Origin: Methanobacteriota archaeon
Lineage (GTDB): Archaea > Thermoplasmatota > Thermoplasmata > SG8-5 > JAGLSY01
Direction: 5' to 3'
DNA length: 64,000 nt
NCBI GenBank assembly: GCA_020696385.1
Contig: JAEHCQ010000004.1
Location: 160,001 to 224,000 of the forward strand
Position 1 is the first letter of the stretch; each line of letters begins with the position of its first letter. Below the pieces are notes generated by a model. It had not been told where the DNA came from. It saw only the letters and a program-made list of their open reading frames with translations, and did not search any database. Position numbers and translations under genes: made by a program. Positions 1 through 27,272 of the stretch are shown here, piece by piece.

Positions 1-340
1 TCTCGAACTCCATGAGCTTGCCGACATCATGGAGAATTCCTCCAGCTATGAGCCGATCATAATCGATCCCATACGGCATGTTGGCATAGTGCTTTTCTTG
101 AGCCTTTGCAAGTTGTAACGCGCCCTCGGTGACGGCCATCGTGTGCTCGATAAAATTCACGCCTTTGCAATCCGTCAAAAGTGTGAAGGGCATTTGCTTC
201 AGCTCGTCCACGCTCTGCCAGTTGCCTCTTTCGCAACCGATCACCCAGGCCTTGACAGTGCCTTCGCGGATGTTCTCGTCCTTTATCATTGACAGGTATG
301 GGCCAAACAATTCTTCGATATCGCTTTTGCTTATCATCAA
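1..340 (-). CDS. HD-domain (HDIG-type) phosphohydrolase, 3' end outside the window
   Basis: Not in the ORF track. Manual translation gives MISKSDIEELFG...FIEHTMAVT...GGILHDVGKLMEFE (H...HD motif), with GGAGG upstream of TTG340/ATG337. Confidence 0.8.
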   Translation of the reverse strand, partial: MMISKSDIEELFGPYLSMIKDENIREGTVKAWVIGCERGNWQSVDELKQMPFTLLTDCKGVNFIEHTMAVTEGALQLAKAQEKHYANMPYGIDYDRLIAGGILHDVGKLMEFE

Positions 341-448
341 CGTTCCTCCTTACTGGTTGGAATCAAGGGATAAATATGAATCGACTTAATGAATGTTGGT
401 ATTTGCTCTTGGATAATTGATTGAGACCTCAGGCTTCAAATCCTGAGA

Positions 449-1318
449 TCAATCAATTCCAAGTTCCTTTTCCAGCCTCTTCCAGATATCTTTTATATCA
501 CTGGCCAGCTGACCAACTGAGAACTCCACCACTGTCTTCTCATCCATCATGGCCCTGGTGGCTGTTTCATCATAGGCCAGTTTTCCAATGACATCGATGC
601 CCTCTGCCTTGCAGAATTCGATTATGTCGGCTGTGTTATCTTCATTGATATCGTATTTGTTTATGCAAGCCACTGTGGAAACCTGAAAATGTCTGGCAAC
701 CTCGATTATCCTCTTAGCATCATGTATGCCGGACAGAGTGGGCTCTATGACGATAAGAACAAGATCAACGCCAGTTATCGAAGCGATCACCGTACATCCA
801 GTTCCTGGCGGTCCATCAATGATAATGAGATCATTTCCTTCTTTCTCGGCTATTTTCCTAGCTTTTTCCCGGACCAGGGCGACCAGTTTGCCAGTTGCTT
901 CCTCGCCAGGATGCATATTCGCATGCACCATCTTTCCGAATCTGGTATCCGATACATAGGACTCGCCAGCCACCCTCTGGACCATCTTGATGGCTCCAAC
1001 TGGGCATACCAGTTCGCAGACAGCACACCCTTCGCACTTTTCGGGATGCAGGGTGTTATCAGGATCAAAAGAATCGTATCTGCAATTATCATAACACAGG
1101 CCACAATCCGTGCAGATATCATCATTCTTCTGTGCGACATTCAGTCCGTGGAAGATCTCACTGCTCTTCACCTGGGGATGAAGCAGTAGGTGCATGTCCG
1201 CGGCATCCACGTCAGCATCGACTGTGACATGGTTTTTCGCCAGTGCTGCGAAAGCGGCTGTAAGGGTGGTCTTTCCAGAACCACCCTTTCCGCTTATAAT
1301 AGTGATTTGTTTGACCAT
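449..1318 (-). CDS. MinD-superfamily P-loop ATPase with inserted 2x[4Fe-4S] ferredoxin domain
   Basis: SGKGGSGKTT, CTDCGLC...C and CEGCAVC...CP, DGPPGTGC. Confidence 0.9.
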   Translation of the reverse strand: MVKQITIISGKGGSGKTTLTAAFAALAKNHVTVDADVDAADMHLLLHPQVKSSEIFHGLNVAQKNDDICTDCGLCYDNCRYDSFDPDNTLHPEKCEGCAVCELVCPVGAIKMVQRVAGESYVSDTRFGKMVHANMHPGEEATGKLVALVREKARKIAEKEGNDLIIIDGPPGTGCTVIASITGVDLVLIVIEPTLSGIHDAKRIIEVARHFQVSTVACINKYDINEDNTADIIEFCKAEGIDVIGKLAYDETATRAMMDEKTVVEFSVGQLASDIKDIWKRLEKELGID

Positions 1319-1319
1319 A

Positions 1320-2168
1320 TCACTCCCCCCTCTGGATTTTGACGATATCTTTTATCTTATCATAAATTTCAATGAACACCTGTTTGTATTCCGGTATGCC
1401 CTCGACAATTGGAATTCCTTTCGAATACAGCCTGGCGATATCAAGGTCATTGGGTATGCTGGCTAAGAGTGGAATTCCATCCTCTTCACAGAATCTCTCC
1501 ACCCTGTCATCACCTATTCCAGCCCGATTTATCACGACCCCAAAGGGCGTTCCGATATTCTTGACTACATCCACAGCCAGCTTGAGATCATGCAATCCGA
1601 AAGGTGTTGGCTCAGTCACCAGAATGACAAAATCCGAGTCGCTCATGGCCTCCACAGCGGGGCACGCTGTACCTGGTGGGGAATCAAAGATCACTTCCTT
1701 GTCCGGAGACGCCATTTCCTTGACCGCCTTGATTATTGGAACTCCAAAAGGCTCTCCGATCTTAAGGAGACCGTGATACAGTTCCATGTCATCATTTCCA
1801 CCTTTTTCTATGATGCCCAGCACATGCTCTGTCTCGGATACTGCATCATTTGGGCATATGATCTTGCACCCACCACAGCCATGACAAAGCTCTTCGAAAA
1901 ATAGAAGCTTTTCTTTGATAACAGCTATTGCATTGTACTGGCAGAACTCCGCGCATTTCCCGCATCTGGTACACTTATTCATATCAAATACTGGCACTGG
2001 AATTCCAACCTCTCTGACCTTCTCCATGGGCTCCTTGAAGAATAGGTGGCAATTTGGCTCCTCCACATCACAATCAATGAGCATGGTATCACCCATGCTC
2101 AATGCGAGGTTGACTGATATGGTGGTCTTACCAGTTCCACCCTTACCACTGGCTACGGATATTTTCAT
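1320..2168 (-). CDS. MinD-superfamily P-loop ATPase with ferredoxin insert (paralogue)
   Basis: MKISVASGKGGTGKTT, CTRCGKC, CHGCGGC, DSPPGTAC, EPTPFGLHDL; start refined to ATG 2168. Confidence 0.9.
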   Translation of the reverse strand: MKISVASGKGGTGKTTISVNLALSMGDTMLIDCDVEEPNCHLFFKEPMEKVREVGIPVPVFDMNKCTRCGKCAEFCQYNAIAVIKEKLLFFEELCHGCGGCKIICPNDAVSETEHVLGIIEKGGNDDMELYHGLLKIGEPFGVPIIKAVKEMASPDKEVIFDSPPGTACPAVEAMSDSDFVILVTEPTPFGLHDLKLAVDVVKNIGTPFGVVINRAGIGDDRVERFCEEDGIPLLASIPNDLDIARLYSKGIPIVEGIPEYKQVFIEIYDKIKDIVKIQRGE

Positions 2169-2194
2169 TGTATCACACTTCAGATCCACTCAGC

Positions 2195-2611
2195 CTAATT
2201 GCCGCATCCTCCGCTGTGATCATGACCTTCTCCATCGCCATGCCCTTCGCCACGGAAGGCATGCTGGTCACAGGCCGTGTCCTTGGTGGCCTGTTCGAGC
2301 GAATTGTTTTCCCAGGAACTTATGGCATCCTTGATGGTGCCAGTAGCTCCCATGTAAACACAGATACCGGCTTCCTCGAACATCTGGATCGCTCTTTTTC
2401 CAAGACCACCGCAGAGCATGATGTCCACACCCAGTTTCGCTATGTTCTCGGCGGGATAGCCGGAGCCCCCTGTATGGGAACTATCGTTCGGCACTGCTTT
2501 AATGTCCTTGGTATCGCTATCATAAATGGTATAAATGGGTACTCGGCCAAAATGCTCGCCCACTTGCTCATCTAATCCTCTATTGCCCATTGATGGAATA
2601 CATATTTTCAT
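2195..2611 (-). CDS. NifB/NifX-family (FeMo-cofactor-binding fold) protein
   Basis: MKICIP...EHFGR...LCGGLG; His/Gly/Cys-rich tail. Confidence 0.85.
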   Translation of the reverse strand: MKICIPSMGNRGLDEQVGEHFGRVPIYTIYDSDTKDIKAVPNDSSHTGGSGYPAENIAKLGVDIMLCGGLGKRAIQMFEEAGICVYMGATGTIKDAISSWENNSLEQATKDTACDQHAFRGEGHGDGEGHDHSGGCGN

Positions 2612-2625
2612 TTTGAAATCCTCCT

Positions 2626-3000
2626 TTATCTTCTACCGCCCATGCCATTATGTGAGCCAACATTGGCCCCGGCAGCCTCCTCCAGTTCTCCATTCTTGAA
2701 TTTATGTATCATGTCCTTGATCATTCCATTGGAACCTGTGAGTATCCTTATGCCAGCAGCCTCAAGGGCCGAGTAGGCATTGGGTCCCACATTCCCCGTG
2801 ACCAGCACGTCAACATCCTTATTGGATATTGTCTGTGCTGCTTGTGGTCCAGCTCCTCCACTGGCATTCGCACTCTCATTGCTCACTGCCTCGAACTCCA
2901 TTGTGTCTGGGTCAACGATAAGGAAATACTCGCATCTTCCAAACCTGGTGTCCACTTCAGCTTCAAGGTCCTTGCCTTTTGACGTCATTGCTATTTTCAT
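2626..3000 (-). CDS. NifB/NifX-family protein (orange-protein-like)
   Basis: RFGRCEYF...GGAGPQAAQ...TGNVGPNA. Confidence 0.9.
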   Translation of the reverse strand: MKIAMTSKGKDLEAEVDTRFGRCEYFLIVDPDTMEFEAVSNESANASGGAGPQAAQTISNKDVDVLVTGNVGPNAYSALEAAGIRILTGSNGMIKDMIHKFKNGELEEAAGANVGSHNGMGGRR

Positions 3001-3004
3001 TGTA

Positions 3005-4342
3005 TCATCTCATGTTCTTTATCGCATTCTCGGATGCATTCACCAACTGGTAGGCTATTGGCGATGCTGTGACTGCTGGATGTGTTCCGATCTGGAAAGT
3101 GGCCAGATCATCAAAGGTCATCTTCTTCTGAATACATGCGCTCACGGTGTTTATCAATTCTCCAGCACTGGGGCCTCCTCGTATCTGGCCTCCAATTAAT
3201 TCACCAGTTCTTTTATTGAATGTTAATTTGACCTTCATCTTCGACATGCCGGGCATTCCACCAGGATGTCTGTTTGGAGCTTCTGCCTCTCCACATGTTA
3301 TCTCATAACCTCTTTCTTTTGCAAGACCCTCTGTCAATCCCGCCATAGCAAATACCTTGTCACCAATGGCCGTTGAGAATACTCCCACAGCTCCGTAATT
3401 GTGCCTTCTTGGGCTGAAAAGATTTGCTCCGGCTATCCTGGCTTCCATTGTCGCTATTGATGCCAGTCTTAATCCGATCTGCCTTCCAGTGAAGAAGGAT
3501 GTCTTGTTTGTACAATCCCCGCAAGCGAAGATATTGTCATCCGAGGTTCTCATATTGTTGTCCACAACTATCCCTCCCCGGTTCACATCAAGGCCAGCAT
3601 CCGCTGCTAATTTTGAATTTGGCTTTACACCAACTCCCACTATCAAAAGATCTGCCTTCAATTCCTGGCCATTTGATAATCTGACGCTGGAAATCGACTC
3701 GTTTCCATTTACCTCTTCAAGCTTGACACCTGTTATGATGTTCACGCCTCTTTCCTTCAGAACCTCTTCGGCCTCGATACACAGGTCTTCTTCGAAGGCC
3801 AGCATCAGGCAATGTGGCATAAGCTCGACAATTGTCACGTTCGCATCTCTGTTCTTCTTACATTCATCAGCGAACTCGACACCGATGAACCCACCACCCA
3901 GTATCACGATGTCCTTTGCATCGTTCACTGCATCCAGCATCTTATTGAGGTGGTTCACTTCTTTTTTCACGGTGAAGACGTTTTTCTTATCCAGTCCCGG
4001 TATAGGTAGATCAAGGGGCTCAGAGCCAACAGCCATTACAAGTTTGTCATATCCCACTTTTTCACCATTGCCAGTGCTTACTATTTTCTGTGTTTTGTCT
4101 ATGGAATTTACTTCGTCTATCAATAGCTCTATTTCATTGTTGGACAGAACACCATCAGGTATCATATTGTTGTCAGGGGAATTCACGGTCCCATAGATAT
4201 AGGGAATACCGCAGGGTATCTGGACCTGCTTCTCCTTCCTTATCAACATCACATTCTTTTCTGGATAATGTCTACGGCAAGTTATGGCCGCGGGTATTCC
4301 AGCTGCGCTCCCTCCGATAACTACTACGTCTGTTTGTTTCAT
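3005..4342 (-). CDS. FAD-dependent pyridine nucleotide-disulfide oxidoreductase (NADH oxidase/CoA-disulfide reductase family)
   Basis: VIGGSAAG, single-Cys PCGIPY, GGGFIGVE, FACGDC; start refined to ATG 4342. Confidence 0.85.
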   Translation of the reverse strand: MKQTDVVVIGGSAAGIPAAITCRRHYPEKNVMLIRKEKQVQIPCGIPYIYGTVNSPDNNMIPDGVLSNNEIELLIDEVNSIDKTQKIVSTGNGEKVGYDKLVMAVGSEPLDLPIPGLDKKNVFTVKKEVNHLNKMLDAVNDAKDIVILGGGFIGVEFADECKKNRDANVTIVELMPHCLMLAFEEDLCIEAEEVLKERGVNIITGVKLEEVNGNESISSVRLSNGQELKADLLIVGVGVKPNSKLAADAGLDVNRGGIVVDNNMRTSDDNIFACGDCTNKTSFFTGRQIGLRLASIATMEARIAGANLFSPRRHNYGAVGVFSTAIGDKVFAMAGLTEGLAKERGYEITCGEAEAPNRHPGGMPGMSKMKVKLTFNKRTGELIGGQIRGGPSAGELINTVSACIQKKMTFDDLATFQIGTHPAVTASPIAYQLVNASENAIKNMR

Positions 4343-4443
4343 CCATCTAACCTTCTTAACGATTTTTAACACTGTTATTAACAGCGTTACGTACAATGGC
4401 CGATGGCTTATAAAACCCACGGATAATGATTGTTAATTTTCAA

Positions 4444-5271
4444 TTATTTCCTCGAATCTTCAATGTTCTTGATTATATCCATAAAGGCTTTGGCAGAATC
4501 CGTGTTACCCTGAACAACTGGATTGCCCGAATCACCCATGATCACCATCTGTGGATCAATAGGGATCGCTCCCAAGAAAGTGATATTCATTTCCTTTGCC
4601 GTTCTCTCACCGCCACCCTTCTTGAACAGGTCGATAGTCTCGTCACAATGAGGACATTTGAAACCACTCATGTTCTCGATTATCCCGAGAACCGGCATCT
4701 TCAGATTATGGGCGAAGTTCACGGATTTTCTGGAATCTAATAAGGCCACATCCTGAGGTGTTGAGACGATGATCGCCTCGGCCTGTGGGATCTTCTGGGC
4801 AATACTCAGAGGCTCGTCACCGGTTCCTGGTGGAAGATCCACGACCAGATAATCCAATTCACCCCAATTAAAATCTCCCAAGAATTGGTCAATAAGCTGC
4901 ATCTTCATAGCCCCTCTCCAGATGACTGGCGCATCTTTGTCTGGAAGTAGGAAGGCCATGGACAGCACGCTGAGATTATCGGATACTTTGATGGGCTTCA
5001 GAGTTTCATCATCCAGTTCCAGCACCCTGTCTTCGATGCCCAGCATCTTTGGAACATTGGGTCCGTGAATATCAACATCCATAAGACCGACCTTATAGCC
5101 TTCGTCTGCAAGACCTGCAGCCAGGTTCACGGCCACCGTGGTCTTTCCAACCCCACCTTTGCCGCTCATTATTATCAGCTTGTTCTTGATCTTGCTGATA
5201 TTGTACATTATTCTTGCATTCAGTTCCGCTGCTTCCTTATTGGGCGCGCCCATACCACATGATTCTGCCAT
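4444..5271 (-). CDS. mrp: Mrp/NBP35 Fe-S cluster carrier ATPase
   Basis: [39 protein letters not shown]; start refined to ATG 5271 after GGAGG. Confidence 0.92.
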
Positions 5272-5373
5272 TTTCCAATCCTCCATGATACATTTGAGTA
5301 TACCTGGTATCAACCCGTCAAAGTATTTATTATTATAACCTTAACGGCATTAACAATACTAAATAATAATTTT

Positions 5374-5420
5374 TTTAAAAAAATAAAATGCGGGGTCGAC
5401 CATCATTCGGTCGATCCCAT
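5374..5420 (-). terminator. Hairpin plus T-tract after the DUF5320 gene
   Basis: On the minus strand GGGATCGACC...GGTCGACCCC is followed by ATTTTATTTTTT. Confidence 0.55.
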
Positions 5421-5618
5421 TCTGCGCAGACCTCTGCCGCGTCCTCTTCCGGTTCCACATCCAGCTCCACGACCACTGCGGTTTCCACCGCCACGGCCCA
5501 TGCCCATCCTTCCTTCTGGATTGGCACATCCTGGTGCTTCGCTTCCTGTGCAGTATCCCATACCGCGACCGGTCTTCGGCCCCTGGCCTTCTGGTCCTGT
5601 CTTGTTTCCTCTTGGTAT
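5403..5618 (-). CDS. DUF5320-like small Gly/Arg-rich protein (71 aa), apparent AUA start
   Basis: (M)PRGNKTGPEGQGPKTGRGMGYC...GRGRGRG follows GGAGGTGA; not in the ORF track; usual neighbour of DUF134/Mrp. Confidence 0.8.
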   Translation of the reverse strand: MPRGNKTGPEGQGPKTGRGMGYCTGSEAPGCANPEGRMGMGRGGGNRSGRGAGCGTGRGRGRGLRRMGSTE

Positions 5619-5638
5619 CTTCTCACCTCCTTTTTCTT

Positions 5639-6040
5639 TTATTCCTCTGCTTGGGTCGAACGCCTTCTTCCGCGTCCCCTGCGACGACCTGGGAACTGGT
5701 CATCCATTTCCTTGTCGTCCATCTCCCCCACAATGGAATAGGAGCCACCGTCTATCCTTATCGCACAGCCATTGACCAGTGCGAAGGCAATTTTCTGTCT
5801 AGCTTCCATTAGATCGTTCCAGAATGTCCTTCTGGACACGCCCATCTCCATCGAGGCTTCTTCCTGGGTAAGTCCCTCTATGTCTGTGAGTCTCAGTGCT
5901 TCGACCTCTACAACGGTCAAGATCACTATCCTCATATCATCACGAGAGACACCTGCAGGACTGAAGAAAGTGGTCTCTGGTACATTACTCACCCATCTTG
6001 GGTTTCGTCCTCTACCTCGTCCACGTCCTTTTCCAGGCAT
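5639..6040 (-). CDS. DUF134 family predicted DNA-binding protein
   Basis: EALRLTDIEGLTQEEASMEMGVSRRTF...ARQKIAFALVNG; ATG 6040 lies about 25 nt after a TTATATA box. Confidence 0.88.
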   Translation of the reverse strand: MPGKGRGRGRGRNPRWVSNVPETTFFSPAGVSRDDMRIVILTVVEVEALRLTDIEGLTQEEASMEMGVSRRTFWNDLMEARQKIAFALVNGCAIRIDGGSYSIVGEMDDKEMDDQFPGRRRGRGRRRSTQAEE

Positions 6041-6124
6041 AATATTACATATATGAGAAGAAATATATAAACTTATCGGCATATTTGAGCAATTAAGAAT
6101 CAATATTGCTAGATCGCAGACGAT

Positions 6125-9022
6125 CTATTTTTCTAGTTCATCAAGCTCTTTCTGAACTTTATCAATATTTATTTGATCGCCCATTTTTTCATATTTTTCT
6201 TTGGACATATTTAAAAATTCAATAGACTGGCTCTTATCACCTTTCTTTTTCCACAAGAGGCCGAAATTATAGTAAAGGTCGGAGAGTTGATTGTGTTCGA
6301 GCTCTTCCATGATCTCTCGAGACATCTGTAGGTTCTCTTCTGATGTGTCCAGGTCATCCTGGGCCATGTATGCTGTACCAAGATTGAGATAGCTCATCCC
6401 CATGCCATCCTTGGTCTTGATCTCCTGGGAGACTTCCAAGGCGAGCTTGGCATTTTCCAGGGCATTATCTAGCTTACCCGATTTCAAATTCAATTCGCAC
6501 AGCCCGTTATAGCAGTAAATTATGATATATTTAAAGTCATATTTCAAGCAGATGTCCTTTGCTTCGGTCGTTATCTCAATGGCACGTTCGAACTCTTCTT
6601 TTATGTAATAGGCAACATTCATATTGACAAGAGAAATGGCCGCCCCTCGCATATCTCCTATCTGCTTCTCGATGCTCACACTCTGTTCAAGATAGGGAAT
6701 TGCATTATCCGCCTCTCCTCTTCCAAGATATACCGATCCAATATTGGCCAGGGTATTTGCTTCGCCCATCTTATTTCCAAGTTTCTTGGCAACCTCAATT
6801 GCTATTTCATAATATTCAAGGGCTTCCTTGTATTCACCCTTTCTGGCATACACATTCCCAATATTGTTTACGGTTGCTGATTCTCCAGATATATCGTTTA
6901 CCTCTCTTCGATGATCCAATGCCTTCTGTAGATTATTCAATGCCCCGTCGTAGTCTCCTTGATACAGAAGGGTCGATCCTAAGATGTGGTATATCCTCCC
7001 CAGCTCCCATTTATTCTTCAGTTTGTCAGCTATATCCAGGCTCTTTTTAAGTATGGACTTTGCCTCATCATAATCTCCCTTTCTCATTTCAATATTACCA
7101 AGGGTGGTGTACAGTTTCGTTTTTTCAATGCTGATATTGTCTGGTAGTAGTGAAAGTCCGATATTGCACTCATCCTTTCCACTATCGAACTCGCTCTTCT
7201 TCTCGAACACGTCAGCGATCTTCCTGTGGACATTCGCCCTGTGGCTGACATCATCTGATGCTTCACTAACCGCTCTGTATATACCGATAGAATCATCGAA
7301 ATCCCCGGTGACAGAATAAAGGTCACCAAGTCTTTCTTGCAAATTTATACTGGGTGTGTAATTCCTCATGGTGCTAATGGCCAGTGCTTTTCTGTAGAAC
7401 TCGATGGCCTGTTCAGGAGCGAATGTGCTCTCGGCTTTCTCTCCGGCCTTTATACAATAATCCAAAGCCTTTCTATGCTCATTGCTATTCGCAAAATGTC
7501 TGGCAAGATCATACAATACATCATCAACCCTGCTCTTGTAGGCCGATTCATAATATTCCCCAATGCTTTTGTGGTATGCCATTTTCCATCGATCAGTCAT
7601 GCTATTATACGTAACATTATGAAAAATAGCATGCGTAAATTCAGCATTCTCCTTGTCTATGACTATTATGCCAGAACTTTCAAGATTGCTGAGTGCCATT
7701 CGAGGGTCAACGATGGAGGGCAGGGAGCATACGACATCGCAATTGAACTCCTTTCCCATGCAGGAAGCGTATTCCGCAAGGGTCATGGCATCCAGATCCA
7801 GGCTCTGAAGCCTCTGGTGAACCACCCCCTCGACCGAGCTGGGTATGTTAATGCTAACTCTTTCCAGAACATAAGTGCCGTTTGATTCACTTATGTCTCC
7901 CTCCTCTTCCATATGCCAGAGTATCTCTTTCACAAAGAGGGGATTGCCCTCGCACTGTGATGAAAGATCTTCATAAAATGTTGATGGGAAGGAATTTTCA
8001 GGATAGAGATCATTCATAATGGAGGTTATACCATCACTGCCCAATCTGTCAAGTGCCAGTTCAGATATGGTCCCCTCTTCCTTCATTATCTTAAGCTTCG
8101 CCTCGAATGCTTCACCCTCTGCAGGTCTGGATGTTCCCACAATGAGGATATTTTCAAGTCCCACATTCCGAGCAAGATAGTTGAGAACGAAGAGAGATGA
8201 TTCATCCGCCCAGTGCAGATCCTCCAGGATAAGAAGTAATGGTTTTTCCTGTGTTCGAGCCTGCAAGGATGCCAGCACCTCATCCGCGATCCTTATCCTT
8301 TCATCATCCAGGTTGATGTTCTCTATGTCTCGACGCACCATGAATTTCGACTCGGCCAATAGCGTGATCTCATCCTGAACCTGCTTCATCTCGCCCATGC
8401 TTCCTGACCAATCTTTAAAGATCTGGTCATCCGCCTCGACGATCTCAAGGCAGATCTTCAGGGACGTTCTCATATCATTGTGTTCCGAACCCTTGAAGAC
8501 CGCGGTGAGAAATAAATGCTCTCCATGCTCGATCAATATGGTCATGTCCCCGTATTCCAGACGGCCAAGCCCTGATCTTTTATTGCCGGCATTGACGAAT
8601 GAGTCTCTTATGAAACCCTGTACCGCGGAAAGCATGCCTGCGAAAATATCTGCATCCATATCCCCTTCACCGGAGGATGCTTGGCCAACCAATAACCCCG
8701 CACTATCTACTGCAAAGATCTCTGTGAACTTTGTATATTCCTGATCTTGAAATAGAGATGAATCATCTCCCAATGCCTTTGAGAATATCTGAAATGGTAT
8801 CAGGGAATCTTCGCTTGCTGAGCCAGAAAGTATATCCATATTTTCATTACTGGCAATGGAGATCAATTCCTCAATAAGTCGGGTCTTACCGATCCCAGCT
8901 TCCCCCGATATCAGGATAGTGCTCCCAGAGCCTGCAGTCATATCATCCAAGCACTGCTGGAGCTGACCCATTTCGATTTCTCTTCCAAACAGCCCTCGAT
9001 CTAATGTTGGGTGATCTAACAT
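6125..9022 (-). CDS. STAND-type AAA ATPase with inserted longin/roadblock-like domain and C-terminal TPRs
   Basis: GEAGIGKT, LILEDLHWAD, EGNPLFVKE, many TPR repeats. Confidence 0.85.
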   Translation of the reverse strand: MLDHPTLDRGLFGREIEMGQLQQCLDDMTAGSGSTILISGEAGIGKTRLIEELISIASNENMDILSGSASEDSLIPFQIFSKALGDDSSLFQDQEYTKFTEIFAVDSAGLLVGQASSGEGDMDADIFAGMLSAVQGFIRDSFVNAGNKRSGLGRLEYGDMTILIEHGEHLFLTAVFKGSEHNDMRTSLKICLEIVEADDQIFKDWSGSMGEMKQVQDEITLLAESKFMVRRDIENINLDDERIRIADEVLASLQARTQEKPLLLILEDLHWADESSLFVLNYLARNVGLENILIVGTSRPAEGEAFEAKLKIMKEEGTISELALDRLGSDGITSIMNDLYPENSFPSTFYEDLSSQCEGNPLFVKEILWHMEEEGDISESNGTYVLERVSINIPSSVEGVVHQRLQSLDLDAMTLAEYASCMGKEFNCDVVCSLPSIVDPRMALSNLESSGIIVIDKENAEFTHAIFHNVTYNSMTDRWKMAYHKSIGEYYESAYKSRVDDVLYDLARHFANSNEHRKALDYCIKAGEKAESTFAPEQAIEFYRKALAISTMRNYTPSINLQERLGDLYSVTGDFDDSIGIYRAVSEASDDVSHRANVHRKIADVFEKKSEFDSGKDECNIGLSLLPDNISIEKTKLYTTLGNIEMRKGDYDEAKSILKKSLDIADKLKNKWELGRIYHILGSTLLYQGDYDGALNNLQKALDHRREVNDISGESATVNNIGNVYARKGEYKEALEYYEIAIEVAKKLGNKMGEANTLANIGSVYLGRGEADNAIPYLEQSVSIEKQIGDMRGAAISLVNMNVAYYIKEEFERAIEITTEAKDICLKYDFKYIIIYCYNGLCELNLKSGKLDNALENAKLALEVSQEIKTKDGMGMSYLNLGTAYMAQDDLDTSEENLQMSREIMEELEHNQLSDLYYNFGLLWKKKGDKSQSIEFLNMSKEKYEKMGDQINIDKVQKELDELEK

Positions 9023-20651: not shown

Positions 20652-21368
20652 ATGACCGGGGGAAAAGTGGAGCAGGCAGTGGTCCTATGCGGGGGACTTG
20701 GAACCAGGCTTCAGTCGGTTTCCAAGGACATTCCAAAATCCATGATGCCCATTGACGACCGCCCATTTCTCGAGATACTGGTGTCACAGTTCAAGAACCA
20801 TGGCATCACGCGTTTTCTTTTCCTCACAAGTCATCTTCACGAGATCATTGAGGAACACTTTGGGGACGGTTCCTCCTTCGATGTCACTATCGAATATTCC
20901 ACCGAGCCAGAGCCCATGGGAACAGGTGGTGCATTGGAACTTGCCAAGGACAAGTTGGATGCTGTGTTCTTCCTGGTCAATGGAGACACCATCTTGCCAA
21001 TCGATCCCACCATGCTCATTGCCGGATTTTATAGACAGAAATGCCTCGGATTCGTCACAGTATATGACAATAATGAGAAAATTGCAGATAAGAATATCAT
21101 AATAGACAATAAGGGCCAGATACTGCTCTACACCAAGCTGACATCCCTTCCTGAAATGACAGGAGTGGAAGCTGGCATGTCTGTTCTGGATAAGAAGGTG
21201 CTTAATATCTGCAAGAAGGAGAGTTATTCTCTGGAAATGGAAGTTTTCCCGAAATTAATAAATAATGGCCGTCTCTTTGGTTTATTAACGAGCCAGCGTT
21301 TCTACGACATTGGAACACCTGAAAGGCTGGAACTTGCAAGGAGTGTATTGAATGACCTTGGTTGGTAG
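20652..21368 (+). CDS. hddC: Heptose-1-phosphate guanylyltransferase-like nucleotidyltransferase
   Basis: LCGGLGTRL, PKSM, EPMGTGGAL, VNGDT, FYDIGTPE; operon context. Confidence 0.78.
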   Translation: MTGGKVEQAVVLCGGLGTRLQSVSKDIPKSMMPIDDRPFLEILVSQFKNHGITRFLFLTSHLHEIIEEHFGDGSSFDVTIEYSTEPEPMGTGGALELAKDKLDAVFFLVNGDTILPIDPTMLIAGFYRQKCLGFVTVYDNNEKIADKNIIIDNKGQILLYTKLTSLPEMTGVEAGMSVLDKKVLNICKKESYSLEMEVFPKLINNGRLFGLLTSQRFYDIGTPERLELARSVLNDLGW

Positions 21369-22359
21369 AGCACCGGTTAGAATAAGTTTCGGGGGCGGAG
21401 GAACGGACCTGGCTTCTTATTACAAGAAGCACGGCGGAGTCGTGGTCAGCGCGGCCATAAACAAGTATTTTTACACAATTCTGGAACTCAGGCAGGATGA
21501 GCGTATCCAGATAATCTCTTCAGACTTGCAGCTCAATCACACAGTGGAGGATTGCTACAGCCTGAAGTATGGTGAAGGACTGGACATTCCGGTCGGTGTA
21601 CTGAAGCACATGCATGTCCGCAGAGGCATGAACCTTCTTATGGCATCCGAGATACCGCCAGGCACTGGCCTTGGATCCTCGGGAGCAGTTACGGTCAATA
21701 TAATCAATACGATCAACCATCTTGAACATCTGAAGATGACCAAGAAAGAGCTAGCGGAGATGGCATACCACATAGAATACAATGAACTGGGTCTGCCCAT
21801 CGGCAAGCAGGATGAATATGCATCTGCTTTTGGAGGACTTAATTTCATCACATTTGACAGGTCTGGTGACACCACGGTCGAGCCTCTCAGTGTTCCAAAG
21901 GAAGTGCGCATGAGGATGGAGGATGACATCATGCTCTTCTTCACTGGCAGAACACGCCAATCATCCAAGATATTGAAGAGCCAGGATTCTTCAACCAAAG
22001 ATGATACTGGTGAAGTTGTCGAACGACTTCACGAGATCAAGGATATCGCTTTTAAAGTCAAAAAAGCGATAGAGGTAGGCGACCTGACTGAGATGGGTCA
22101 CCTTCTTGATATGAGCTGGCAGAATAAGAAGAAGCTGGCAAAAGGCATCAGCAATCCACGCATAAACAAGATATACGATATCGCGAAGAAAGAAGGAGCC
22201 GTGGGTGGTAAGCTGACCGGAGCCGGAGGCGGAGGATACATGATGCTCTTCTGCCACAAGAAACACCAACCAGCAGTTAAAAAAGCAATGGTGAAGGAAG
22301 GACTTTCATTGCTTGATTTCAAGTTCGACCACAAGGGTGCGAAGACCATGTTGGGATAA
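21352..22359 (+). CDS. hddA: D-glycero-alpha-D-manno-heptose-7-phosphate kinase (GHMP family)
   Basis: APVRISFGGGGTD, PPGTGLGSSG, GKQDEY, GKLTGAGGGG. Confidence 0.9.
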   Translation: MTLVGRAPVRISFGGGGTDLASYYKKHGGVVVSAAINKYFYTILELRQDERIQIISSDLQLNHTVEDCYSLKYGEGLDIPVGVLKHMHVRRGMNLLMASEIPPGTGLGSSGAVTVNIINTINHLEHLKMTKKELAEMAYHIEYNELGLPIGKQDEYASAFGGLNFITFDRSGDTTVEPLSVPKEVRMRMEDDIMLFFTGRTRQSSKILKSQDSSTKDDTGEVVERLHEIKDIAFKVKKAIEVGDLTEMGHLLDMSWQNKKKLAKGISNPRINKIYDIAKKEGAVGGKLTGAGGGGYMMLFCHKKHQPAVKKAMVKEGLSLLDFKFDHKGAKTMLG

Positions 22360-22451
22360 ATTATCTATATCGGGATAATCAATCCATGACGGGGTAATCT
22401 ATAACTATCACATTGAGAATAATAGTAGGGTGAAACAGGGGACATGATGAC

Positions 22452-23042
22452 ATGGACGAATTCAGAAAGAATTTCATTGATGGATATTTGAAAGACGTGA
22501 TAGACTGCCTGGAGGATTACAGGAAGAACCCGGAGTTCTTCGACGAACTGGCGACCATATTCCTAGATGCCAGGAAGCGAGGCAATATTGTATATTTCAT
22601 GGGGAATGGCGGAAGCGCGGCAACAGCCAATCATTTTGTATGCGACCTTGGCAAGGGCACGATCGTGGAAGGATATCCAAGGTTCAAAGTTTTATCATTA
22701 TCGGATAATATACCGATGATGCTGGCATGGGGAAATGATGCTTGTTATGAGGATATATTTGTCGAGCAGTTGAAGAACTTGATGAATCCCGGGGATGTCA
22801 TAGTCGGTATAAGTGGCAGCGGAAACTCTGGCAATGTTCTCAGAGCCATTGATTGGGCGAATGAGAATGGTGGAATAACCGTCGGCCTCACAGGTTTTTC
22901 AGGTGGTAAATTGAAGGACATGGCCAAGCACGTGTTGGTCGTTCCAATTCACTACATGCAGAAGATCGAAGATATCCACATGCTGGTCGATCACCTGGTC
23001 ACATCCCTTATCCGTGAAGAGGAGATGGCCAACCTTGAGTAA
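22452..23042 (+). CDS. gmhA: Phosphoheptose isomerase (SIS domain)
   Basis: GNGGSAA, GND, ISGSGNS, EDIH. Confidence 0.9.
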   Translation: MDEFRKNFIDGYLKDVIDCLEDYRKNPEFFDELATIFLDARKRGNIVYFMGNGGSAATANHFVCDLGKGTIVEGYPRFKVLSLSDNIPMMLAWGNDACYEDIFVEQLKNLMNPGDVIVGISGSGNSGNVLRAIDWANENGGITVGLTGFSGGKLKDMAKHVLVVPIHYMQKIEDIHMLVDHLVTSLIREEEMANLE

Positions 23043-23532
23043 GAACAGGGCGGTATTCCTGGATCGTGACGGAGTCATCAATCGCCTGCACATGGGCAAG
23101 TACGTGACCAAGTGGGAAGAATTTGAATTCCTGGAAGGTGCATTGGATGCGGTGACCGCACTGGCAGCCAGTGATTTTAAAATAATTGTAATTACGAATC
23201 AATCCGCGATCAACCGCGGATTCATAACCGAGTATGAGCTGGAAGTGATCCACGAGCACATGACCGACAGCATTGAGAAGGCTGGCGGCCGAATTGATTC
23301 CATATACCACTGCCCGCACGCCCCGCATGAGGAATGTACCTGCCGAAAGCCGGAGCCTGGGATGTTCGAAAAGGCGATAGGGAATCATGATATCGATGTG
23401 ACCGGATCATGGTTCATCGGAGACTTCCAGAGTGATGAGGAAGCCGCCGCGAGAGTTGGCCTGAAATTCAAGCTGGCTGAGGGTGATGGCGGACTGAGAA
23501 GGGCGGTTGATGAGATATTGAATTCTAAATAA
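23035..23532 (+). CDS. gmhB: Heptose-1,7-bisphosphate phosphatase (HAD)
   Basis: FLDRDGVIN, TNQS, CPH...CTCRKP, IGD; start refined to TTG 23035. Confidence 0.9.
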   Translation: MSKNRAVFLDRDGVINRLHMGKYVTKWEEFEFLEGALDAVTALAASDFKIIVITNQSAINRGFITEYELEVIHEHMTDSIEKAGGRIDSIYHCPHAPHEECTCRKPEPGMFEKAIGNHDIDVTGSWFIGDFQSDEEAAARVGLKFKLAEGDGGLRRAVDEILNSK

Positions 23533-23800: not shown

Positions 23801-23812
23801 GTTTATATATCA
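23801..23812 (+). promoter_or_regulatory. Probable TATA box for the tRNA-like-gatE-gatD unit
   Basis: TTTATATAT at 23802-23810. Confidence 0.45.
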
Positions 23813-23950
23813 TAATCATTTTGTGGATTTGACTCAAATAGTCAGTATATCACAATAGCCCTAAGGTGTGAAGACGGAGCCCAATAACGAAACAAATGGA
23901 AAAGCTCCTTACTTTACACCACAAGGCGCTGATGAATCAATAAACAGAAT

Positions 23951-24024
23951 AGCCTCGTGGTGTAATGGCAGCACAGGAGGTCTTGCACCTCCAGGCATCA
24001 GTTCGACTCTGATCGAGGCAACCA
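23951..24024 (+). tRNA. Non-canonical tRNA-Gln(UUG)-like gene with encoded CCA
   Basis: Cloverleaf: acceptor AGCCTCG/CGAGGCA, D stem GTGT/GCAC, anticodon stem GGAGG/CCTCC with loop TCTTGCA, T arm ATCAG-TTCGACT-CTGAT, then A-CCA. Confidence 0.88.
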
Positions 24025-24048
24025 AACTAACCAGTAAAAAGTGAGGAA

Positions 24049-25872
24049 ATGATAGACCCCAAGAACATCGACTACAGGAAACTGGGCTTCAAAGCGGGCC
24101 TCGAGATACACCATCAGCTCAAGTCTTCTCGAAAGTTATTCTGCCACTGTCCAGCCGAGTTATCGGCCGATCTGCAGAAGAACCCGGACTTCACTTTTCA
24201 CAGACGCTTCCGAGCCGTGATGGGCGAGATGGGGGACTTCGACCCAGGTATGCTGGTCGAAGTTGAAAAGGGCTATCTGGTCATCTACCATGCGAATGAT
24301 GCCCATGTGTGCACTTACGAGATGGACGATACACCGCCATTCTGGCTGGACATGGAATCTGTGGATACGGGCTATAAGCTTGCCAGTCTTTTCAATTGCG
24401 AGTCGCCAGCCGAGGAAGTTGTCATAAATCGTAAGCAGTACTTGGATGGTTCGATAACCACTGGTTTCCAGCGCACGATGATAATCGCCAGGGACGGCCA
24501 TGTGCAATTGGCCAGTGGCAGGAAGATCACTATCACCAATATCCTTATCGAAGAAGATTCGGCCAGGAAGATCAAGGTCGAGGATCGCGGTCGAACCGTT
24601 TATTACAATCTGGATCGGCTGGGTGTTCCACTTACAGAGATAATAACAGATCACAATGAGATTGACACGCCGGAGCTTCTGATCGAGGCCATAAAGATGA
24701 TCGCCCTCAATTTGAGATTGACTGGTCTGGGTCGTCGCGGTATCGGTGTCGGCAGGCAGGATGTGAATATCTCGATCGATGGTGGTGACAGGGCGGAATT
24801 AAAGGGAGTTCAGGATCTTTCCTTAATGACAAAGTTCTGCGCCCACGAGGTATGCAGGCAACATACGCTTATCGATATTCAATCTCAACTTGCCAGCTCG
24901 AACCTGAAGAAGGAAGAGTTCGAGCATAATTACATCGATATTACACACTTATTCAATGATCTGGGTGAAGGAGAATCAGCCTTCGCGGTTAGGCTACCCG
25001 GTTTTGAGGAAATTCTCAAAACCGAGGTTCAGCCAGGCAAGGACTTTGGATATGAGATCTTCGAGAAATGCAATTTGATCACAGGTGTCCAGTACGACGA
25101 AATGTTCCATTCGGGCGAGATGAGCCCGGGATCCATTCGCATGATGAACAGGTCGGATGATCTTTTCATCAATAAGGGACAGGATGGCGAAATTCGTGCT
25201 ATTCTGAAACTGGAAGATGGAGATGGATACGTAGCTGCCAGGGGTAGTGAGAAACCAGTTCTCCACACTCTGAAAAAGACAGTAGAAAGATGCAAGCAGG
25301 CCTTCGATGGCGTGCCCCAGGAGACCAGGCGAGTACTACCAAATGGCAATAACGAGTTCCTGCGTGTGATCCATGGAAAAGGCCGGCTTTATCCGGACAC
25401 GGACACGCCACCAGCTCCCTACCCGATGGAGAAATTCCAGGCGATAAAGGAAAAGGGCTGGACAAGACCATTGGACCTTCTCGAAAAGTACCAGGAGAAG
25501 GGATTGAAATTGCCCATGCTGGAACTTCTTATCCGTGATGAGAAGATACCAATGTTCCAAAAGTTGGTGGATGAGGTCAAGGTCCCAACCTCTCTGGCTA
25601 TCCGATTGACTGTGGAAATTCCCCGGTGGCTGAGGAGGAAAGGATATGATCCAGAGATTATCAGCCAATTTTCGATCATCAGCATTGCTGGCAATATCAT
25701 GTCAGGCAAGCTCCAGGCAAAGCATCTTCGCCCAATGATGAAGGAGATATGCATTGCCCCCAAGGAGAACCAGAGTTCGATAGTTACCAAGTGGGTGGAT
25801 CAGAACAATAAAAAGGATGAACCGGGCGATGTAAAGGACCAATGGCCAGATGATGGGAGGTGTTGTAAGTGA
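24049..25872 (+). CDS. gatE: Glu-tRNA(Gln) amidotransferase subunit E (divergent)
   Basis: GLEIHHQL...KLFCHCP, DGSITTGFQRT, EEDSARK, LDRLGVPL, RQDVNISI, GVPQETR, LYPDTD. Confidence 0.9.
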   Translation: MIDPKNIDYRKLGFKAGLEIHHQLKSSRKLFCHCPAELSADLQKNPDFTFHRRFRAVMGEMGDFDPGMLVEVEKGYLVIYHANDAHVCTYEMDDTPPFWLDMESVDTGYKLASLFNCESPAEEVVINRKQYLDGSITTGFQRTMIIARDGHVQLASGRKITITNILIEEDSARKIKVEDRGRTVYYNLDRLGVPLTEIITDHNEIDTPELLIEAIKMIALNLRLTGLGRRGIGVGRQDVNISIDGGDRAELKGVQDLSLMTKFCAHEVCRQHTLIDIQSQLASSNLKKEEFEHNYIDITHLFNDLGEGESAFAVRLPGFEEILKTEVQPGKDFGYEIFEKCNLITGVQYDEMFHSGEMSPGSIRMMNRSDDLFINKGQDGEIRAILKLEDGDGYVAARGSEKPVLHTLKKTVERCKQAFDGVPQETRRVLPNGNNEFLRVIHGKGRLYPDTDTPPAPYPMEKFQAIKEKGWTRPLDLLEKYQEKGLKLPMLELLIRDEKIPMFQKLVDEVKVPTSLAIRLTVEIPRWLRRKGYDPEIISQFSIISIAGNIMSGKLQAKHLRPMMKEICIAPKENQSSIVTKWVDQNNKKDEPGDVKDQWPDDGRCCK

Positions 25873-27272
25873 GCGAAGAATACCAGCCACCAGATGGTTA
25901 CAGAGGCCCGCTCCTCCAACGCCTGGTAGAAGCCAAGATACGCACATGGTCAGTCATCCAGGTGAATAAAACGGACGGATCACATTACGAAGGTGTGCTT
26001 CTGCCACGTTCCATCCACACATCTGATGATTATCTTTCTATAAAGGTGGATACTGGCTACAATATCGGTATCCAGCTTCCCGACGATGCCACGATAAAAG
26101 AGGTCGGGTACAATGCGGGCTCTTATCAAATTCCAGAGAAGATCGTGGAGAAAACACCCGGGCTTCCGAATGTCACGCTCCTGGGCACAGGTGGGACAGT
26201 GGCCAGTCGTCTTGATTATAGAACCGGAGCCGTACTACCGGCATTCACTCCATCCGAGCTTTTCTCCGCAGTCCCAGAGCTTATCGACATCTGCAATTTA
26301 ACTCCAAAGACCCTTTACCAGATCCTTTCCGAGAACTTCTGCCCCGAATACTGGATAAAAACAGCCGAAGCGGTCGCCAAGGAGATCGAGGGCGGAGCGG
26401 ATGGTGTGATAATCGGTCATGGCACCGACACAATGAGCTATTCTGGCTCGGCACTTTCATACATGTTCCAGGACCTTCCAGTTCCAGTGGTCATCGTGGG
26501 CTCTCAGAGAAGCAGTGATCGACCATCCAGTGACGGACCCATCAATATGATGAACGCCACCACATTGGCCGCCTATGGCGACTTGGCAGAAGTGGTCGTC
26601 GTCATGCACGGAACCACGAGCGACAATTACGATCTTATCCACCGTGCCACCAGGGTGCGCAAGATGCACAGTGCGCGGAGAGATACTTTCCGCACTGTGA
26701 GTGATACTCCATTGGGTCAGATCAAGGATAAGGAGATCAAATACTTCAAGGATGATATCAGACGCCGCAGTCCAAAAGAGGACTTCCATCTGAATACCAA
26801 GATGGACGAGCGCGTCACAATGCTCTACTTCTACCCAGGCATGGAGCCAGATGTCATGCACGCGGTTCTGGACAAGGGCTATCATGGCATTGTCATGATC
26901 GGTACTGGCCTTGGGCATGTTGGCAAGCCCATGTATGAAGCATTGGACAGAGCGCAGGAAGAAGAAATTCCCGTGGTCATCGTCGTCCAGCCAATGTTTG
27001 GATTCTCACATCTCAGAGTTTACGAAACAGGTCGTGACATGCTGGCCAGAGGCGTGATAGAGGGCAAGAACATGCTTCCCGAGGCAGCACTTCCAAAACT
27101 CATGTGGGCACTTGGCCAGACACAGGATGTGAAAGAAGTGGAAAAGATCATGCACACCAATCTGGCCGGCGAGATCACCAATCGGGAACCATACTCCGGC
27201 TTCCCGATATTCCAGGGTGGTGTTCCGAACTTCTATGATAATTATAAGAATATCGATAGGCTGAAAAAGTAA
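25869..27272 (+). CDS. gatD: Glu-tRNA(Gln) amidotransferase subunit D (asparaginase-like)
   Basis: GYNIGI N-terminal domain, GTGGTVASRLDYRTG, HGTDT, SQRSSDRPSSD, RKMHS, GTGLGH. Confidence 0.95.
   Translation: MSEEYQPPDGYRGPLLQRLVEAKIRTWSVIQVNKTDGSHYEGVLLPRSIHTSDDYLSIKVDTGYNIGIQLPDDATIKEVGYNAGSYQIPEKIVEKTPGLPNVTLLGTGGTVASRLDYRTGAVLPAFTPSELFSAVPELIDICNLTPKTLYQILSENFCPEYWIKTAEAVAKEIEGGADGVIIGHGTDTMSYSGSALSYMFQDLPVPVVIVGSQRSSDRPSSDGPINMMNATTLAAYGDLAEVVVVMHGTTSDNYDLIHRATRVRKMHSARRDTFRTVSDTPLGQIKDKEIKYFKDDIRRRSPKEDFHLNTKMDERVTMLYFYPGMEPDVMHAVLDKGYHGIVMIGTGLGHVGKPMYEALDRAQEEEIPVVIVVQPMFGFSHLRVYETGRDMLARGVIEGKNMLPEAALPKLMWALGQTQDVKEVEKIMHTNLAGEITNREPYSGFPIFQGGVPNFYDNYKNIDRLKK

Follow-up and report, generated by a model that had tools for sequence, protein, structure and literature searches.

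According to passages in two reviews of 2022, archaea lack, or almost always lack, GlnRS and form Gln-tRNA only via GatDE (PMC9499178, PMC8762117). As known from Methanothermobacter thermautotrophicus and Pyrococcus abyssi, this indirect route joins ND-GluRS, GatDE and tRNA-Gln. Sections of the work on this enzyme describe GatDE as specific for Glu-tRNA-Gln (PMC2811023) and as reading the D-loop and the first base pair while ignoring the anticodon (PMC9499178; PMC2943598; PMC2811023); within GatE, recognition of the D-loop is ascribed to the tail, and that of the first base pair to the cradle (PMC2811023; PMC2943598; PMC9499178). Here we describe a locus with the same enzyme family in a 64,000-nt stretch of DNA from a Thermoplasmata archaeon (contig JAEHCQ010000004.1, positions 160,001 to 224,000), called the window below. 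In it, an odd tRNA-Gln-like RNA, named tRNA-Gln* or tRNA* for short, lies directly ahead of gatE and gatD. The three genes of this module are:

23951..24024, + strand: tRNA-Gln* gene with A1·A72, A73, an encoded CCA, the loop UCUUGCA and a pairable U32-A38 (ARAGORN, Rfam RF00005, family covariation, and the covariance model R1 introduced below)
24049..25872, + strand: gatE, 607 aa, of an Asgard-related lineage, with the distal half of the YqeY-like tail missing (TIGR00134, Pfam, PDB match)
25869..27272, + strand: gatD, 467 aa, with a GTG start and a 4-nt overlap with the gatE stop (NF003217, TIGR02153, Pfam)

The reading that we favour, and to which we give roughly an even chance, is that tRNA-Gln* is a trans-acting third tRNA-Gln dedicated to the adjacent GatDE; in most cases it would share a transcript with gatED, and it is probably a poor fit for EF1A and the ribosome. 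Two oddities are invariant in the family: the A1·A72 mismatch and a Watson-Crick 32-38 pair. The assembly that holds the window (G000; the window is from its contig C44) comprises 2.28 Mb in 50 contigs and is 94% complete.

ARAGORN finds a single tRNA in the 64-kb window, a tRNA-Gln(ttg) at 23951-24024 on the + strand. The Rfam tRNA model RF00005 matches at 23951-24021 over model positions 1-71 of 71, with 47.2 bits and E 9.4e-9 (gathering score 29), and the sole non-standard pair under this model is the outermost one. The acceptor strands AGCCUCG and CGAGGCA form A1·A72 and six standard pairs. The D arm, GUGU-AAUGGCA-GCAC, has G18 and G19; the anticodon arm, GGAGG-UCUUGCA-CCUCC, has a loop that reads U32 C33 U34 U35 G36 C37 A38; the variable region is 4 nt long, the T arm is AUCAG-UUCGACU-CUGAU, and A73 is followed by an encoded CCA at 24022-24024. 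In the minimum-energy fold of this RNA (ViennaRNA) the anticodon stem has 6 bp and the loop 5 nt. A sequence-only reading of this DNA had claimed a cloverleaf with an encoded CCA 24 nt ahead of the gatE ATG, and an anticodon loop TC-TTG-CA with C33, C37 and A-A at 1-72; ARAGORN, Rfam and the sequence itself confirm the former, and the loop and the mismatch read as claimed.

Within its own genome the gene stands apart. U33 together with a purine at 37 is present in 34 of the 35 tRNAs of G000, and the exception is the window gene only. This set was obtained with ARAGORN without the intron option (with that option 30 genes are called and tRNA* is missing). To our knowledge, U33 and a purine at 37 are near-universal in elongator tRNAs also beyond G000. 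The window gene is also alone among the 35 in having an unpaired outermost acceptor position, in a comparison where the register starts at -1 for nine rows. All 35 have a pyrimidine at position 32, and the 32-38 combination is U-A in ten of them and C-G in one. The 32-38 pair tunes ribosome affinity, and in the E. coli GlnRS complex the anticodon stem is extended and bases 34-36 are splayed.

The same RNA recurs at homologous gatE loci. A tRNA-Gln upstream of gatE and on its strand was found by ARAGORN at 9 of the 11 distinct loci of the clade to which the window GatE belongs, and none was found at the 23 canonical and Asgard loci scanned in the same way, nor at further ones. In the alignment of the nine distinct tRNA* sequences (A2), the 20 cloverleaf pairs inside 1-72 are standard in all nine (100% of cells), with compensatory double changes at 10 pairs, or 11 when 32-38 is added. 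Recurrence with stem covariation, proposed earlier as a check, is thus what the homologous loci display. The observed covariation is reached by 0 of 500 shuffles, and slid registers pair 27-47%; given the relatedness of the nine sequences, the significance is exaggerated by the shuffle control, and these figures are not probabilities.

Position 1-72 is A·A in all nine sequences, and 32-38 is a Watson-Crick pair in all nine as well (UA in 4, CG in 2, GC in 2, AU in 1), with a purine at 32 in three of them and changes on at least four separate branches of the GatD tree described below. The anticodon is UUG in seven and CUG in two; U35 and G36 are invariant, as are G18, G19, T54, T55, C56, A58, U8 and A14, and A73 is present in 9/9. 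The D-loop has 7-9 nt across the family, as against 8 in the canonical tRNA-Gln of G000, and CCA is encoded in two of the nine. A repair of the mismatch by a U(-1)-A73 pair was considered and rejected: T(-1) is found in 6/9 and C(-1) in 3/9, and many canonical tRNA genes of G000 have T(-1) too. The anticodon loops are distributed over the loci as follows:

UCUUGCA: window, L002, L003, L041
CUUUGCG: L040
CUCUGAG: L004
GUUUGAC: L005, L065
AUCUGAU: L007

C33 is found in four and C37 in five of the nine distinct sequences. Their recurrence at homologous gatE loci had been proposed as a check; both do recur, but they do not define the family, and as its hallmark they were rejected and replaced by A1·A72 and the 32-38 pair.

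Next, we consider the distribution of the RNA and of the GatE clade. A search of 41 relatives places the clade, at 64-93% identity, in seven genomes of the set of G000 (G000-G004, G017 and G018), and other GatE proteins of the class are only about 31-41% identical. Among 401 genomes sampled from the class, the clade is present in the same 7. Further clade loci (L040, L051, L065, L066 and L067) were added from scans of public genomes and metagenomes. A covariance model of the nine tRNA* sequences (R1) gives 81-94 bits to tRNA* genes and 50-75 bits to canonical tRNA-Gln; the window gene has 94.1 bits and the canonical tRNA-Gln of G000 at most 62. At 86 bits or more, R1 matches in 7 of the 22 genomes of the order, exactly the seven with the GatE clade, and 15 have neither; within the order, RNA and clade thus co-occur perfectly. 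The best matches outside the module genomes, with 73-75 bits in G005, G006 and G008, are canonical A1-U72 tRNA-Gln(CUG) genes beside GlnRS. The genes gatE and gatD are the only protein genes common to all loci.

tRNA* exists in addition to normal tRNA-Gln genes. G000 has a canonical tRNA-Gln(UUG) on contig C22 and a tRNA-Gln(CUG) on C33, both with A1-U72, A73, U33, G37, the loop CU-YUG-GA and no encoded CCA. The window RNA is thus not the sole tRNA-Gln(UUG), a circumstance on which the idea of a dedicated carrier had been made to depend. Canonical UUG and CUG genes accompany tRNA* also in G001, G002 and G018, and one such gene was found in G003; none was found in G004 (83% complete) or G017 (70% complete).

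GlnRS of G000 scores 698 bits against a curated cut-off of 425.8 (G000:C33:75019-76596, - strand), and GlnRS is above the cut-off in 19 of 41 related Thermoplasmata genomes, including G001 and G002. With GlnRS and two canonical tRNA-Gln genes, G000 has a complete direct route to Gln-tRNA, and it is the presence of GlnRS that makes a GatDE with a private tRNA plausible. GatB was not found in G000. A duplication of GluRS was rejected, since there is one copy in G000 and one in each of the 22 genomes of the order. Further, two GlnA matches above the cut-off in G000 led us to reject Gln auxotrophy with tRNA-dependent synthesis as the sole Gln route.

The direct route has a linked tRNA as well. In G000 the canonical tRNA-Gln(CUG) lies about 540 nt from GlnRS (G000:C33:76816-77207); a tRNA-Thr lies between them in G000 and G002, and the neighbourhood is also seen in G005, G006 and G008 (L113-L115). 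Contig C16, of 716 bp, carries a GlnRS-like fragment in two frames with a frameshift (G000:C16:1-716), 56-67% identical in protein sequence to the C33 GlnRS; the fragment may stem from a second copy of the gene, from a variant strain or from contamination.

Both enzyme subunits of the module are well supported. The window GatE has 351.4 bits with TIGR00134 (cut-off 319.55) and 417.1 bits with NF003107, below the cut-off of 456; among PDB entries it matches 1zq1_C with E 1.1e-87 over residues 6-575 and 2d6f_C with E 2.9e-74. The catalytic cradle is kept: GatB_N (PF02934) is found with 138.5 bits, and the clade shows no variation in the motif AGLEIHHQ or in many further columns. The AspRS-like insertion domain GAD (PF02938) gives no match at E up to 1, compared with 5.3e-7 and 1.6e-7 in canonical relatives; the region still aligns to P. 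abyssi GatE. GatB_Yqey (PF02637) reaches 11.9 bits and profile positions 2-81 of 148, as against 32.1 bits in the full-tail clade member L040 and 41.7 and 63.3 in canonical GatE proteins. Of 22 aligned rows, 7 (those of the window, L002-L005, L065 and L006) lack the C-terminal PLMG..MK..RGK.DGK block; a masked stretch makes the GatE end of L006 uncertain. For the window GatD, NF003217 gives 510.3 bits (cut-off 310) and TIGR02153 504.2 bits (cut-off 324); the domains GatD_N (PF18195), Asparaginase (PF00710) and Asparaginase_C (PF17763) and the catalytic Thr motifs GTGGTVAS and HGTDTM are present.

Between the window and L002, dN/dS is 0.09 for gatE and 0.03 for gatD, and the reading frames are intact at all clade loci. 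The GatDE of the module is under strong purifying selection. A tblastn search of G000 with both proteins found no second gatE or gatD. An accessory GatDE beside a housekeeping one is thereby rejected, as the window copy stands alone and GatB is absent, and the second canonical gatDE that had been sought in the genome does not appear in it. The description of the gatE-gatD pair as divergent calls for a qualification: the pair forms a separate lineage but is well conserved, not a decayed second copy, and is the only GatDE in G000.

The order gatE-gatD itself sets the module apart, as canonical loci of the class have gatD-gatE without a tRNA. A quick GatD tree of 35 rows was rooted at the midpoint, with the duplicates L036-L039, L041, L044 and L066 left out, and is read here without a direction of transfer between Asgard and Thermoplasmata. 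In this tree, the 11 Thermoplasmata module rows form a group with short branches (SH-aLRT 99), apart from the 14 other Thermoplasmata GatD rows. The module GatD is sister (SH-aLRT 99) to one of two gatE-gatD pairs in Loki-type Asgard records. We rejected the idea that Asgard genomes with the sister GatDE also hold tRNA*: Loki-type tRNA-Gln has A1-U72, and R1 with filters off gives no match in Asgard loci. GlnRS was not found in the Asgard genomes checked, including those of L042 and L043. In these two Loki-type records, two gatE-gatD pairs stand head to head, together with a third asparaginase-like ORF, at about 1-8650. Elsewhere, in L014, L015 and L023, gatD and gatE lie within open frames of 1025-1063 aa, which suggests GatD-GatE fusion proteins in some Thermoplasmata families.

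The transcription layout bears on how the RNA and the enzyme are connected. Three elements accompany the genes in the window:

23802..23809, + strand: TTTATATA box, a candidate archaeal TATA element for the tRNA*-gatED transcript in the genus (sequence comparison; putative promoter function)
23857..23931, + strand: degenerate tRNA*-like leader element that starts AGCCC like the tRNA, with a long hairpin of ~23865-23880 with 23904-23920 (sequence, folds)
24025..24048, + strand: spacer with no oligo-T terminator and a GUGAGG Shine-Dalgarno-like box at 24041-24046 (sequence)

The gatE ATG, at 24049, lies 24 nt past the CCA and 27 nt past A73. A T run of four or more is the usual archaeal stop signal. 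Such a run occurs within 30 nt downstream of 28 of the 34 other tRNA genes of G000, and tRNA* is without it. Among the nine tRNA* copies, seven lack such a T run and lie 27-52 nt (from A73) ahead of the gatE start; the remaining two copies, in L040 and L041, carry a T5 run, and their distances to gatE are 97 and 1765 nt, respectively. In L041/L066 glnA stands between tRNA* and gatE on the opposite strand (804-2343, -). The motif CCACGA(G/C)TTTATATATC around the TTTATATA box is common to the window, L036 (the G002 locus) and L037 (the G001 locus), and an AAC-N-(G/A)TTAAATA box is found ~32-58 nt upstream of tRNA* in L004, L005, L007, L040, L041 and L065. Taken together, this layout points to a tRNA* with its own promoter that is usually co-transcribed with gatED. 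Further, tRNA* is kept as an independent gene in two lineages, which favours a trans-acting product.

The spacer motif AAAAAGUGAG(G/A)AA is common to the window, L002 and L003. At the position of the leader element, L003 has a minihelix with the same A·A, in which the first 13 nt of tRNA* run straight into its last 8, and L002 has a hairpin framed by the acceptor-like AGCCCCG...CAGGGCU. The element at 23857-23931 looks like the remnant of a tandem duplication; as it is seen in three close relatives only, its conservation says little. In L005 and L065 the 44-nt spacer between tRNA* and gatE holds a common hairpin with one compensatory change, and no T run follows it. In L067 glnA lies directly upstream of gatE on the opposite strand (635-2074, -). 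With glnA adjoining the module in L041, L066 and L067, a link to nitrogen metabolism is possible.

If the favoured reading is right, the module would work as follows. A TATA-type promoter would drive a transcript through tRNA* into gatE-gatD; read-through is expected because no oligo-T terminator intervenes. RNase P and RNase Z would then free tRNA*, leaving a gatED mRNA with a short leader. The single GluRS would glutamylate tRNA-Gln* via the invariant U35 and G36, and GatDE, reading the acceptor end and the elbow, would amidate Glu-tRNA-Gln* to Gln-tRNA-Gln*. The invariant A1·A72 is proposed to give tRNA* an acceptor identity distinct from that of the canonical A1-U72 tRNA-Gln. A 1-72 mismatch, a closed 32-38 pair and C33/C37 are deviations expected to weaken use by elongation factor and ribosome. 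The closed 32-38, joined in many members by C33 or C37, is at odds with the needs of a decoding tRNA, and together with A1·A72 it makes the pair of tRNA* and GatDE look insulated from the route through GlnRS, EF1A and the ribosome. In passages of PMC9976931, U35 and G36 are named as major GlnRS determinants.

A sister family, g5, is informative on the role of GluRS. In 7 of 8 g5 genomes GlnRS is present and GatE was not found. With a single GluRS, a GlnRS and no GatE, the g5 GluRS must, we infer, reject canonical tRNA-Gln. If GluRS in G000 has the same specificity, tRNA* would therefore be the only substrate able to feed GatDE.

Gln-tRNA-Gln* may serve as a reserve of Gln-tRNA for times when free glutamine runs short, or it may be used outside the ribosome. 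In a more specific form, which we hold to be unlikely although worth stating, tRNA-Gln* would be a ribosome-excluded carrier in an Asgard-derived GatDE module, supplying Gln (or activated Glu) for something else than decoding. It might then act as an aminoacyl donor for a transferase, or as an amide-nitrogen sensor or buffer linked to glutamine synthetase. Neither CDPS nor Lant_dehydr_C turned up in G000; in the case of Lant_dehydr_C the control, too, matched nowhere. DUF2156 (PF09924) proteins are present in 19 of the 22 genomes of the order and FemAB-like matches in 3 of 22. G000 encodes two stand-alone DUF2156/LPG_synthase_C proteins, which have the aminoacyl-tRNA transferase fold (G000:C11:364260-365066 and G000:C48:34967-35758, both on the - strand); one type occurs in 19/22 genomes of the order, and the second (108-113 bits) only in G000, G001 and G002.

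Several observations weigh against a private substrate of GatDE. The published determinant of GatDE is A1-U72; all nine tRNA* sequences keep A1 and have A in place of U72, and recognition could be weakened by it. Binding of the tRNA could also be weakened because the window GatE lacks the distal tail block that reads the D-loop. Two clade loci, L051 and L067, have no tRNA* in their available flanks (ARAGORN, and R1 with filters off), and in the genome of L051 the one match to R1 is a tRNA-Pro with 36 bits. GlnRS was not found in 4 of the 7 module genomes, these being 70-83% complete, and the contigs of G017 and G018 are short (about 5.8 and 4.4 kb) and possibly mis-binned. The searches with FemAB, DUF2156, CDPS and Lant_dehydr_C brought up no consumer that is co-distributed with the module. 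U33 is combined with A37 in four of the nine members (L004, L005, L065, L007), and decoding is possible since the loops of L004 and L007 are near normal. An ordinary tRNA-Pro(GGG) of G000 also has a Watson-Crick 32-38 (C32-G38), and the relatedness of the nine sequences, mentioned above, belongs here as well.

Some of these points are those of a competing explanation that we judge doubtful, yet a serious contender: tRNA* would be an ordinary extra isoacceptor, charged either by GlnRS or through GluRS and GatDE, delivered by EF1A and decoding CAA/CAG. Its odd loop and first pair would be tolerated since the load falls on two canonical genes, and its linkage would serve only to match expression. 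The Gln anticodon in 9/9, the intact cloverleaf and elbow, the calls as tRNA by both ARAGORN and Rfam, the U33/A37 of four members and the closed 32-38 of one canonical tRNA all agree with it. So does the pace of change: between G000 and G002, tRNA* differs at 7 of 71 nt and the two canonical tRNA-Gln genes at 0 and 1, which fits relaxed constraint. Relaxed constraint, however, leaves the invariant A·A unexplained, and it is at odds with four independent double changes at 32-38 in which Watson-Crick pairing was always kept. Further, the GatD tree suggests that C37 was kept in L040, L041 and the window, lineages with no more than 64% identity in GatE, the rule of U33 and a purine at 37 is obeyed by 34 of 35 G000 tRNAs, and perfect co-distribution with one GatDE clade would be unexpected for a spare gene. 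That the gene is instead a decaying relic, made redundant when the arrival of GlnRS overtook the indirect route, with C33, C37, A72 and the short GatE tail as damage, is already disfavoured and in our view hardly credible. It would account for the g5 genomes, seven of eight being without detected GatDE and all seven with GlnRS, for the truncated tail of the subclade of the window and for a loop that breaks the rules of tRNAs. Against it stand the dN/dS of 0.03-0.09 and the intact frames, compensatory changes at 10 stem pairs with none broken but the fixed A·A, and a UCUUGCA loop kept in four assemblies from two families.

The remaining explanations see no amino-acid carrier in the RNA. The sequence-only reading had offered a tRNA mimic in the mRNA leader as its alternative: a cis-acting, tRNA-shaped gatED leader where cleavage by RNase P/Z, or binding of GatDE or GluRS, sets the stability or translation of the operon, that is, autoregulation by mimicry. 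The layout of seven of the nine copies, 27-52 nt from gatE with no terminator and a Shine-Dalgarno-like box right after, is what such a leader would have; an alternative fold pairs the leader with the 5' part of the tRNA and the Shine-Dalgarno region (z -1.93, weak and not significant), and the hairpin of the L005/L065 spacer has its compensatory change. In L040 and L041/L066, however, the RNA ends in T5 and is fully conserved although parted from gatE, by 97 nt with a TATA-like stretch in the former and by the whole opposite-strand glnA in the latter. These two of nine copies, with their own T-run terminator 97 or 1765 nt from gatE, weaken the leader alternative, as does the invariance of U35 and G36: since GatDE ignores the anticodon, it suggests a synthetase that reads tRNA* as its substrate. 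We consider the leader improbable. Still less probable is an uncharged tRNA-like regulator or chaperone that would bind GatDE, GluRS or GlnRS in the manner of mascRNA, which in sections of PMC9976931 appears as a processed cloverleaf that has no normal anticodon loop and binds GlnRS without being aminoacylated. The loop and acceptor end of tRNA* are indeed non-canonical, and glnA adjoining the module in L041, L066 and L067 hints at a tie to nitrogen status; on the other hand, the RNA keeps a YUG anticodon, A73 and a 7-position acceptor helix, and CCA is encoded in two members.

Several neighbouring or genomic features should be recorded. Upstream of the module, window positions 21352-23532 hold heptose-pathway genes (an HddA-like kinase, a GmhA-like isomerase and a GmhB-like phosphatase), and downstream a nuoH-type gene starts at 27585; these neighbours are common to the closest relatives only. 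G000 also has two unusually long (87-88 nt) tRNA-Phe(GAA) genes called by ARAGORN (G000:C50:1231-1318 and 1710-1796, - strand), with no downstream T run. The bin of L040, 5 Mb in size, contains an array (L104; G041:C79, about 30.4-33.6 kb) of eight or more tRNA genes, each with an encoded CCA; the array is unlike the host-type genes and may lie on a mobile element or a foreign contig.

We found no description of a tRNA gene ahead of gatE, or of an A1·A72 tRNA-Gln, in the literature searched. The comparisons made here suggest a specialised isoacceptor paired with a tRNA-dependent amidotransferase, a private pair. This lineage has both routes to Gln-tRNA, and the older one is tied to a tRNA that breaks the rules and is under clear selection. 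It offers a natural case of two co-existing, possibly orthogonal tRNA-Gln systems in one cell, and as such bears on the passage from the indirect to the direct pathway, on the role of the first base pair and of positions 32-38, 33 and 37 for synthetases, amidotransferases, EF1A and the ribosome, and on the archaeal use of dedicated tRNAs outside translation. A naturally orthogonal pair of tRNA and amidotransferase would also be of interest to genetic-code engineers. Should tRNA* be a ribosome-excluded carrier, archaea would have in it their first non-proteinogenic tRNA, which would also be the first such tRNA with an amidotransferase of its own.

Compared with the described archaeal indirect route, tRNA* shares the Gln anticodon, A1 and A73. 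It differs in having A72 for U72 and in a host, G000, that also has GlnRS and canonical tRNA-Gln; the order of the module, gatE-gatD behind a tRNA gene, and the missing distal GatE tail in the subclade of the window are further differences. A conserved 1-72 mismatch as a mark of identity is known from the bacterial initiator tRNA with its C1·A72, a mismatch that EF-Tu rejects; the domain of life, the nucleotides (A·A) and the anticodon are different here, and a role in initiation is unsupported.

In Staphylococcus aureus, sequence features of certain tRNA-Gly isoacceptors probably steer them away from the ribosome and towards a dedicated enzyme. Like these non-proteinogenic tRNA-Gly, which according to parts of PMC12256121 feed FemXAB, tRNA* is an extra isoacceptor with a redundant anticodon; it is altered at 1-72, 32-38, 33 and 37, and canonical UUG and CUG genes co-exist with it. 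Unlike in S. aureus, the partner enzyme, an amidotransferase, produces the aminoacyl moiety instead of consuming it, and diversion from the ribosome is hypothetical here. With mascRNA, as portrayed in sections of PMC9976931, tRNA* has in common a cloverleaf with an atypical anticodon loop, the one of mascRNA being processed by tRNA enzymes and interacting with GlnRS. Because of its true Gln anticodon, its A73 and the CCA encoded in two members, tRNA*, unlike mascRNA, appears built to be charged.

A GlnRS route alongside a tRNA-dependent amidotransferase is also found in Deinococcus, Thermus and Bdellovibrio (passages of PMC4206432). There, however, GatCAB serves Asn-tRNA, whereas the tRNA linked to the enzyme here bears a Gln anticodon. 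Finally, the dedicated pairing of an enzyme with a tRNA, dependent on the first pair, resembles that of Helicobacter pylori GluRS2 with tRNA-Gln and of the GluRS pairs of Acidithiobacillus (parts of PMC9976931). In those bacteria it is the synthetase that is duplicated, while in the present archaea GluRS is single and the tRNA is duplicated.

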